Positions 35,249 through 35,794 of a stretch of DNA of 64,000 nt are shown piece after piece. The position numbers and the translations under genes were made by a program. The stretch comes from Escherichia phage ph0011. The first letter of the stretch is position 1. The number at the start of each line of letters is the position of its first letter. The stretch lies in sequence record OP557969.1; one strand, 5' to 3'. Under the pieces are notes generated by a model. That model was not told where the DNA came from. It saw only the letters and a list, made by a program, of their open reading frames with translations, and ran no database searches.

Positions 35249-35794
35249 ATGAAACATACTATCGAACAACAAGTGTTTTCACTTCAACAGTTCAGCGTTG
35301 TGAAAGCCACATATAAAGATTCGGTTTATTACTTAGCAGGGAGTAATGATATTACTCCTTATGTAACTAAACTACAATCTGAACATAGTAAAGTTGATAA
35401 TAAAGTACTTAAAGCTGGACTTGAATTATTTTTAAAAGAACATCCTGAGAAAAATCAGCTAGATGTTCCAATGTTTCACTTTGTTTTACTAGATGATCCT
35501 ACTACACATGCAGAATATGTTGAGTGTGTTTGTAGTGAAGTATTTCACATGGATCATGATCAAGTATGGGAAGTTATTGAAGCTCTGAACTCCCCAGCAC
35601 ATTCATATCATGTCGGTACATTTACTGATGAAATGTGTATTACATTTGCTGCTATGATCGACAATGGAAATGAACAACTACGTCAAAATTTAAAATATGA
35701 CAAAGTTCCTTGTCAAGCGAATGGTAAAGATTACGATTCAGCAATTGAAGTTTTAGAAACATTGATTCGTAAAGATTATCCAGATGATATTTAA
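35249..35794 (+). CDS. clpS: ClpS-like adaptor domain protein with about 70-aa N-terminal extension
   Basis: [26 protein letters not shown] ... [21 protein letters not shown] aligns with the ClpS core ([25 protein letters not shown] ... GVFTAEVAETKV). Confidence 0.55.

Follow-up and report, generated by a model that had tools for sequence, protein, structure and literature searches.

A divergent, three-part ClpS homolog encoded beside IF3 in the jumbo phage ph0011 and its relatives

In bacterial ClpS (E. coli; PF02617; PDB 2w9r, 3o2o and 1mbx), an N-terminal extension (NTE) that lacks structure enters the ClpA pore and is needed for N-degron hand-off, and blocking its entry inhibits delivery (PMC9663308). 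The residues of E. coli ClpS that bind the N-degron alpha-amino group are N34, D35/D36 and H66, and its contacts with ClpA are made by E79, which hydrogen-bonds ClpA E28 and T81, and by E82 and K84, which form salt bridges with R86 and E23, respectively (PMC12493166). According to the literature, Met40 is the gatekeeper that excludes beta-branched N-terminal residues. Phages encode ClpS-like proteins as well: Iyer et al. 2021 give the protein AMM43882.1 of phage CBB (CBB_319) as a phage ClpS, and also list IF3 and KTSC proteins of the 121Q-type phage group. Here we examine the ortholog of CBB_319 in Escherichia phage ph0011 (sequence record OP557969.1), within a stretch of 64,000 nucleotides that we call the window. 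The reading that we favour, and to which we give about an even chance, is that this ClpS homolog, specific to its phage lineage, is produced early, along with the phage IF3, and would dock through its residue E128 on the Clp_N domain of a ClpA-type unfoldase, likeliest the phage's own, and act there as a tether or specificity switch.

The window DNA is ~92.5% identical to that of Escherichia phages 121Q, PBECO4, SP27 and others, and thus belongs to a 121Q/PBECO4-type (Asteriusvirus, 'Rak2-like') jumbo phage; genomes of this group measure about 350 kb. PHROG 15940 ('ATP-dependent protease') matches the window protein end to end (1.8e-94), and the family that it represents, exemplified by 121Q gp48, CBB_319 and RaK2 ORF154, shares the same three-part architecture and the same position between IF3 and KTSC genes. 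Identity to the full-length homologs is 96% for 121Q gp48, 64% for RaK2 and 35-49% for Munch, CBB, GAP32 and XaC1; the window copy is a new allele that differs from this family in nothing of substance. The 121Q protein gp48 was deposited as 'protease adapter protein ClpS', and the adjoining gp47 as 'translation initiation factor IF3'. The ClpS annotation and the IF3 and KTSC neighbours are therefore already public (121Q GenBank record; Iyer et al. 2021), and as a gene call the window gene adds nothing new. What is added here, namely the loss of the NTE, the pattern of the docking glutamate and the salt bridges, the drift of the pocket, the deep conservation of the IF3/ClpS-like pair and the co-occurrence with ClpA and ClpP, consists of hypotheses, not discoveries.

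The gene occupies positions 35249..35794 on the plus strand (181 amino acids (aa), ATG start), exactly the open reading frame (ORF) marked in a preliminary description of this DNA, and a Shine-Dalgarno sequence, AAGGA, can be read directly from the sequence at 35237-35241, 7 nt 5' of the ATG. Its product is composed of three parts, all given here in plus-strand coordinates: a ClpS core, preceded by an orphan N-terminal domain and followed by a C-terminal helix. The N-terminal part (aa 1-64; 35249..35440) is a family-specific domain with the motif SVYYLAG..DIT.YV and, as previously claimed, is unrelated to ClpS. It is followed by a junction placed by alignments (aa 65-74; 35441..35470), whose P74 corresponds to P25 at the boundary of NTE and core in E. 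coli ClpS, and then by the ClpS core (35471..35713), which holds the pocket motif D82-D83-P84-x-T86-x-A88, N114 at the H66 position and E128 at the position of E79, the contact to the ClpA N-domain. The C-terminal extension (aa 156-181 and the stop codon; 35714..35794) forms a conserved helix and tail with the motif LE.LIR.DYP.D (residues 162-181), in which L169, E170, L172, I173, R174, D176, P178 and D180 are invariant, as judged from a homolog alignment other than the 25-member set used below. The preliminary description had likened the C-terminal ~100 residues to ClpS; the homology stood, but the core proper spans ~82 residues (75-155), and residues 156-181 belong to the family-specific helix, an element that canonical ClpS does not have.

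The ClpS homology itself was assessed with profile comparisons. The profile search for a ClpS domain that had been proposed as a check gave a match to Pfam ClpS (PF02617) over residues 74-140 with E=5e-4, although its 20.2 bits stay below the gathering score of 23. Among 25 diverse full-length members of the family, 21 match the same model at E<=1e-3; the best of them reaches 6.5e-14, and some, with 46, 38 and 34 bits, lie above the gathering score. Searched alone with phmmer against the PDB, the window protein reached only E~0.3, whereas a profile built from 16 homologs matched E. coli ClpS with E=4.7e-5, and a profile scan of 1.84 billion representatives recovered short canonical ClpS proteins after the family itself. 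On the other hand, the NCBIfam ClpS equivalog models score the window protein at 12-16 bits against cut-offs of 112-158. By these sequence criteria the protein is a ClpS homolog, but not an equivalog of bacterial ClpS, to which it is 21% identical. Several other matches were considered and set aside. The bL12 C-terminal domain belongs to the same fold class, and a comparison of similarity did not support it as a closer relative than ClpS; matches of the 16-homolog profile to the N-terminal part of M17 aminopeptidases (E~0.017) and of TPR_6 to the C-terminal helix (E 0.014, below cut-off) were taken as chance; and P0025 (904 aa) and P0035 (2822 aa), picked up by the scan of representatives, are false positives: they lack a ClpS domain and are of a repetitive adhesin-like or low-complexity kind.

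One departure from bacterial ClpS lies at the N-terminus. Where the canonical protein has its unstructured NTE of ~20-25 aa, the window protein has its N-terminal domain, of which residues 6-64 are predicted to be folded into three beta-strands and two helices, with a predicted local distance difference test (pLDDT) score of 84.5 when modelled alone. Because the fold begins at residue 6, the free N-terminus in the model amounts to ~5 residues, and ClpA would find no NTE to pull on; the protein is thus probably not a classical ClpS adaptor of the hand-off type, to judge from this model. Together, the N-terminal domain and the C-terminal helix have a mean pairwise identity of 37% over the family, compared with 28% for the ClpS core.

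A folded domain in the place of the NTE also invites the opposite interpretation, in which the protein is an anti-adaptor or inhibitor. As an NTE-less decoy on ClpA N-domains and/or N-degron ends, it would shut down host ClpS/ClpAP and protect phage proteins. Such a role would agree with the inhibition of ClpS-assisted degradation when NTE entry is blocked (PMC9663308) and with the early promoter described below, and it has a precedent in SPO1 Gp53 (PMC6873191), an experimentally tested early phage protein that binds host ClpC and re-tunes ClpCP proteolysis. Gp53 is an analog of the host-takeover idea in general, although it is not annotated as a ClpS homolog and works on ClpC in a Gram-positive host. 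We nevertheless hold the decoy to be improbable, as it leaves unexplained why conservation is highest in the N-terminal domain and the C-terminal helix and why an active-looking phage ClpA/ClpP set is retained, and as the weakened E. coli-type docking surface counts here too.

That surface, formed by E79, E82 and K84 on helix alpha-3 of ClpS, was compared across 27 family members and nine short canonical ClpS-like proteins in one alignment, on which all position counts given here are based. E128, at the E79 position, is Glu in 27/27 members and is the sole invariant column in the 25-member diverse alignment. The two salt-bridge residues of E. coli ClpS, by contrast, are gone: the E82 position (I131 in the window protein) is Glu in 0/27 members, and the K84 position (F133) is Lys in 0/27, with Phe, Tyr or Leu instead, compared with Lys in 9/9 of the short canonical proteins. 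On the ClpA side, K84 pairs with E23; the ClpA-like proteins of 121Q, CBB and XbC2 have Thr or Ser there, and Glu is found in that of the Agrobacterium phage Atu_ph07, a distant Rak2-like phage whose canonical ClpS retains the Lys. In these sequences the K84/E23 pattern is suggestive of cognate co-evolution. A similar co-variation of ClpS E82 with ClpA R86 was considered and dropped, because an indel shifts between BLAST and MAFFT alignments and the phage residue becomes either Arg or Glu.

The N-degron pocket has changed in a comparable manner. The E. coli residues N34-D35-D36-x-T38-x-M40 and H66 read D82-D83-P84-x-T86-x-A88 and N114 in the window protein, so that the acidic residue at D35 and the Thr at T38 are retained, and N34->D, D36->P, M40->A and H66->N are added to the docking changes E82->I and K84->F. 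Asp is found at the D35 position in 17/27 members and is lost in 10/27; the H66 position is N in 16, H in 4, D in 4 and another residue in 3; and the gatekeeper position is Ala in 13, Phe in 6, others in 8 and Met in none. The hydrophobic lining (L32, V43, V65 and L99) is kept, but its residues are also core residues. The preliminary description had made conservation of this pocket a matter of importance, and the outcome is divided: D82, D83 and T86 are kept, whereas H66 has become N114 and M40 has become A88, at positions that vary over the family. On sequence, the pocket is only partly conserved and varies widely within the family.

Individual changes of this kind have parallels in other ClpS proteins. 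M. smegmatis ClpS has Asp at the N34 position and binds the alpha-amino group there, Leptospira ClpS1 has H66->Asp and K84->Val and still acts through the ClpA N-domain, and Arabidopsis ClpS1 has a non-Met gatekeeper. Because they occur in these proteins, single substitutions of the window type are compatible with a working ClpS. All three, however, are single-domain proteins with a short unstructured NTE, and none combines all of the changes seen in the window protein. A canonical single-domain ClpS is also known from a phage, namely the 100-aa protein of Atu_ph07 (AUZ95447), from a related jumbo lineage that also has a ClpA-like protein and IF3: with a Foldseek template-modelling (TM) score of 0.75 to the core of the window protein, it is nevertheless short, keeps Lys at K84 and lacks both the N-terminal domain and the C-terminal helix.

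A candidate partner is encoded by the phages themselves. With E. coli ClpA as the probe, tblastn turned up a ClpA-like gene of full length in practically every Rak2-like phage, among them 121Q (gp581) and each close relative of the window in the matches listed, and each Rak2-like phage with a ClpS-like gene among the matches listed also has a ClpA-like gene (ClpS-like versus ClpA-like records: Escherichia, 33 versus 32; Klebsiella, 10 versus 11; Erwinia, 8 versus 8). Over residues 22-732 the 121Q protein shares 43% identity with E. coli ClpA, and its Clp_N domain, at 24.3 bits, passes the gathering score of 20.7. It has intact Walker A/B motifs and KYR/GYVG pore loops, and the ClpP-docking tripeptide IGL reads IGM. 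In addition, gene 464 of 121Q matches PF00574 (CLP_protease) with 141 bits and, at 36% identity to E. coli ClpP, aligns with it at all three positions of the catalytic Ser-His-Asp triad. RefSeq names this gene 'head maturation protease'; true ClpP models match it far better than head-maturation-protease models do. The two genes are dispersed in the 121Q genome, each behind its own strong sigma-70-type promoter with an extended -10, of the same class as the promoter of the IF3/ClpS-like operon. These promoters (gp581, L009 3879-3906; gene 464, L011 ~2882-2910) read TAGACA-16-TATAAT and TGGACA-16-TATAAT, with TG before each.

These observations bear directly on the idea, put forward in the preliminary description and by Iyer et al. 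2021, that the protein is a canonical N-degron adaptor that joins host ClpA and hands host N-end-rule proteins to ClpAP. It has the ClpS fold, it is stated in the literature to be ClpS for the CBB ortholog, the host E. coli possesses clpS, clpA and clpP, E128 is invariant in the 25-member alignment, and the acidic DD motif, T86 and the hydrophobic pocket lining are kept in the window's own subfamily. Set against this are the missing unstructured NTE that hand-off requires, the loss of both E. coli ClpA salt-bridge residues in 27/27 members, the changes H66->N and M40->A together with the loss of the D35 position in 10/27, the equivalog scores far below cut-off, and the presence of the phage group's own ClpA and ClpP. 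We therefore consider this scheme unlikely. In particular, the naming of host ClpA as the partner was not supported, given the ClpA-like and ClpP-like proteins of the relatives and the replacement of E82 and K84 throughout the family. Of the proposed 'host-takeover pair', what survives is a ClpS homolog in a two-gene unit with IF3, behind a host-type sigma-70 promoter that fits early expression; the presumed host partner fares worse, with docking and pocket residues altered and no NTE. That the pair is 'aimed at host translation and proteolysis' is conjecture.

In the reading that we favour, the IF3 and ClpS-like genes would be co-transcribed early from a host sigma-70 promoter, as the transcription signals suggest. 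Helix alpha-3, with the invariant Glu128, would by homology dock on the Clp_N domain of a ClpA-type unfoldase, whose preferred representative is probably the ClpA-like protein encoded elsewhere in the genomes of the phage group; we infer this partner because the genes occur together behind promoters of one class and because the E. coli-type salt-bridge residues have been lost. The unfoldase would in turn work with the phage ClpP-like peptidase and/or host ClpP. In this arrangement the ClpS-like protein would be a tethering adaptor or specificity switch that chooses its substrates largely through its N-terminal domain and C-terminal helix, both strongly conserved, perhaps with the assistance of a remodelled, wider pocket for the N-terminal residue (DDP..T..A, N114).

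Several points weigh against this reading. The ClpA-like and ClpP-like genes lie outside the 64-kb window, where tblastn found no ClpA, ClpX, Aat or second ClpS, and their presence in the ph0011 genome is expected from relatives that are ~92% identical. The K84/E23 pattern is not strict, as the ClpA-like protein of Munch keeps E23 while its ClpS-like protein has Tyr at the K84 position, and the mapping of ClpA T81 and R86 depends on the alignment. In Leptospira ClpS1 the natural changes K84->Val and H66->Asp do not prevent action by way of the ClpA N-domain, and for this reason the docking-residue substitutions do not exclude host ClpA. Nor does the pocket argue in one direction only, since the motif DD(P/N)xT is conserved in the window's own subfamily and M. 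smegmatis ClpS, for which N-degron binding has been verified, employs Asp in the place of N34; by analogy, a functional N-degron pocket is possible. The AlphaFold2 (AF2) model of the protein has a predicted TM score (pTM) of 0.49 and a pLDDT below 70 in 4/5 models, with uncertain inter-domain geometry; its alignments were shallow, because a further homolog search with a diverse profile had gained only three usable distant sequences. Finally, searches of the literature turned up no experiments on any phage ClpS.

The genomic setting supports the pairing with IF3. The IF3 homolog (34732..35235, plus strand; 167 aa; IF3_N 3.7e-17, IF3_C 1.6e-13; phrog_9787) heads the operon, and its stop codon is followed after only 13 nt by the ATG of the ClpS-like gene, which is indeed placed directly after it; a scan of this gap gave no promoter or terminator. 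A sigma-70 promoter of perfect consensus, TTGACA-17-TATAAT, lies at 34659-34687 on the plus strand, at the 69-nt gap 5' of the IF3 gene. The window contains 4 such perfect TTGACA/TATAAT promoters versus 0.24 expected, and the one upstream of IF3 recurs in 121Q, Munch and CBB and, in a near-consensus form, in RaK2. At the other end, an intrinsic-terminator hairpin at 35806-35864 (plus strand) is composed of an A-run, CTCCAAGATT...AATCTTGGAG and a T-run, with a 10-bp GC-containing stem; it folds with -24.5 kcal/mol (z=-6.7) and is kept in 121Q, RaK2, Munch, CBB and XaC1, where the stem has undergone compensatory changes. A simple terminator scan overlooked it because its loop is long. The flanking promoter and terminator hairpin of the preliminary description were thus both found, and both are kept in distant relatives. 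As far as these signals tell, IF3 and the ClpS-like gene form a discrete two-gene transcription unit, from promoter to terminator, that would be transcribed early by host RNA polymerase.

The pair is embedded in a larger conserved block, in the order DHFR, RNase H, Dda helicase, structural protein, small ORF, IF3, ClpS-like, KTSC, structural proteins and topoisomerase II, which we compared in 121Q, RaK2, Munch, CBB, XaC1, XbC2 and two metagenomic contigs. Identity to the ClpS-like protein of the window is as low as 22-24% in the metagenomic contigs, which still keep the block order, and IF3 and the ClpS-like gene lie 3-60 nt apart in all relatives examined. In Atu_ph07, IF3 adjoins a ClpX-like ATPase (zf-C4_ClpX + AAA_2; L006 244-2066), and the canonical 100-aa ClpS (L008 4272-4574) lies ~4 kb 3' on the same strand, with a gene for a small heat-shock protein nearby. 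Judged by gene order, the linkage of IF3 with Clp components is old. A locus of E. coli K-12 (L007, 922913-927432) parallels the adjacency of the phage genes, probably by coincidence.

This linkage raises the question of a role connected with translation, in which the ClpS/bL12-CTD-type fold would act with IF3 on the ribosome or a translation factor. The constant order of the two genes with short gaps, down to 22% identity, would fit such a role, as would the arrangement in Atu_ph07 and the KTSC-domain protein as downstream neighbour. Adjacency alone, however, is no proof of functional coupling, because the whole ~10-gene block is syntenic and the order may be a matter of inheritance; moreover, no physical link to IF3 or the ribosome is indicated, and we judge this role distinctly unlikely. 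In one version, to which we would give a very small chance, phage IF3 would replace and the ClpS-like protein help to destroy its host counterpart: the N-terminal domain or the C-terminal helix would capture and tether a host translation component, for example host IF3, to the phage ClpA-like/ClpP machinery while phage IF3 takes over initiation.

Several further features of the region deserve mention. The three other perfect TTGACA-N16-18-TATAAT sites (plus strand; 19536-19564, 50417-50445 and 52841-52870) presumably mark other early transcription units. A near-perfect promoter-like sequence, TTGACA-17-TATGAT (11/12), at 34463-34491 overlaps the ATG of a 64-aa ORF (34468..34662; phrog_15132), and transcripts from it would begin within that ORF. 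Beyond the terminator lies the gene for the KTSC-domain protein (35868..36413, plus strand; KTSC 1.4e-13), annotated as a virion structural protein in CBB, whose GGAG Shine-Dalgarno sequence, serving the ATG at 35868, is held in the 3' arm of the hairpin. The next ORF, called mechanically at 36385..37974, shares its first 29 nt with the end of the KTSC gene; its PHROG match begins at residue 7, a Met, and its true start is probably ATG 36403, as in 121Q, where the overlap is 11 nt.

The loop of the hairpin carries GATAAATA at 35831-35838, which is similar to the T4-type late promoter consensus TATAAATA, and a (G/C)ATAAATA box recurs in the loop in 121Q, RaK2, Munch, CBB and XaC1. Within the window the heptamer ATAAATA is rarer than expected, with 16 copies on both strands versus ~44 under a first-order Markov model, and 5/11 of the plus-strand copies lie 22-42 nt 5' of a GGAG...ATG start (sites such as 1851, 17876, 33835, 35832 and 42329). 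This scarcity and placement would be the pattern expected of a functional late-promoter motif. Because the genes 3' of the hairpin are annotated as virion structural proteins, we propose that the terminator of the early operon may embed a late promoter.

If the family works as we favour, it would be a natural ClpS with a folded domain in place of the pore-entering NTE and with rewired ClpA docking, in viruses that have their own ClpA and ClpP. Its mechanism of delivery or blockade would test the 'pull on the NTE' model of hand-off. Should the exchange of host for phage translation components prove true, the protein would be a ClpS-fold adaptor that chooses its substrates through an appended domain, not through the N-degron pocket, and that works with a virus-encoded AAA+ protease. 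More broadly, the family could reveal private, early regulated proteolysis in jumbo phages, possibly coupled to their own IF3.
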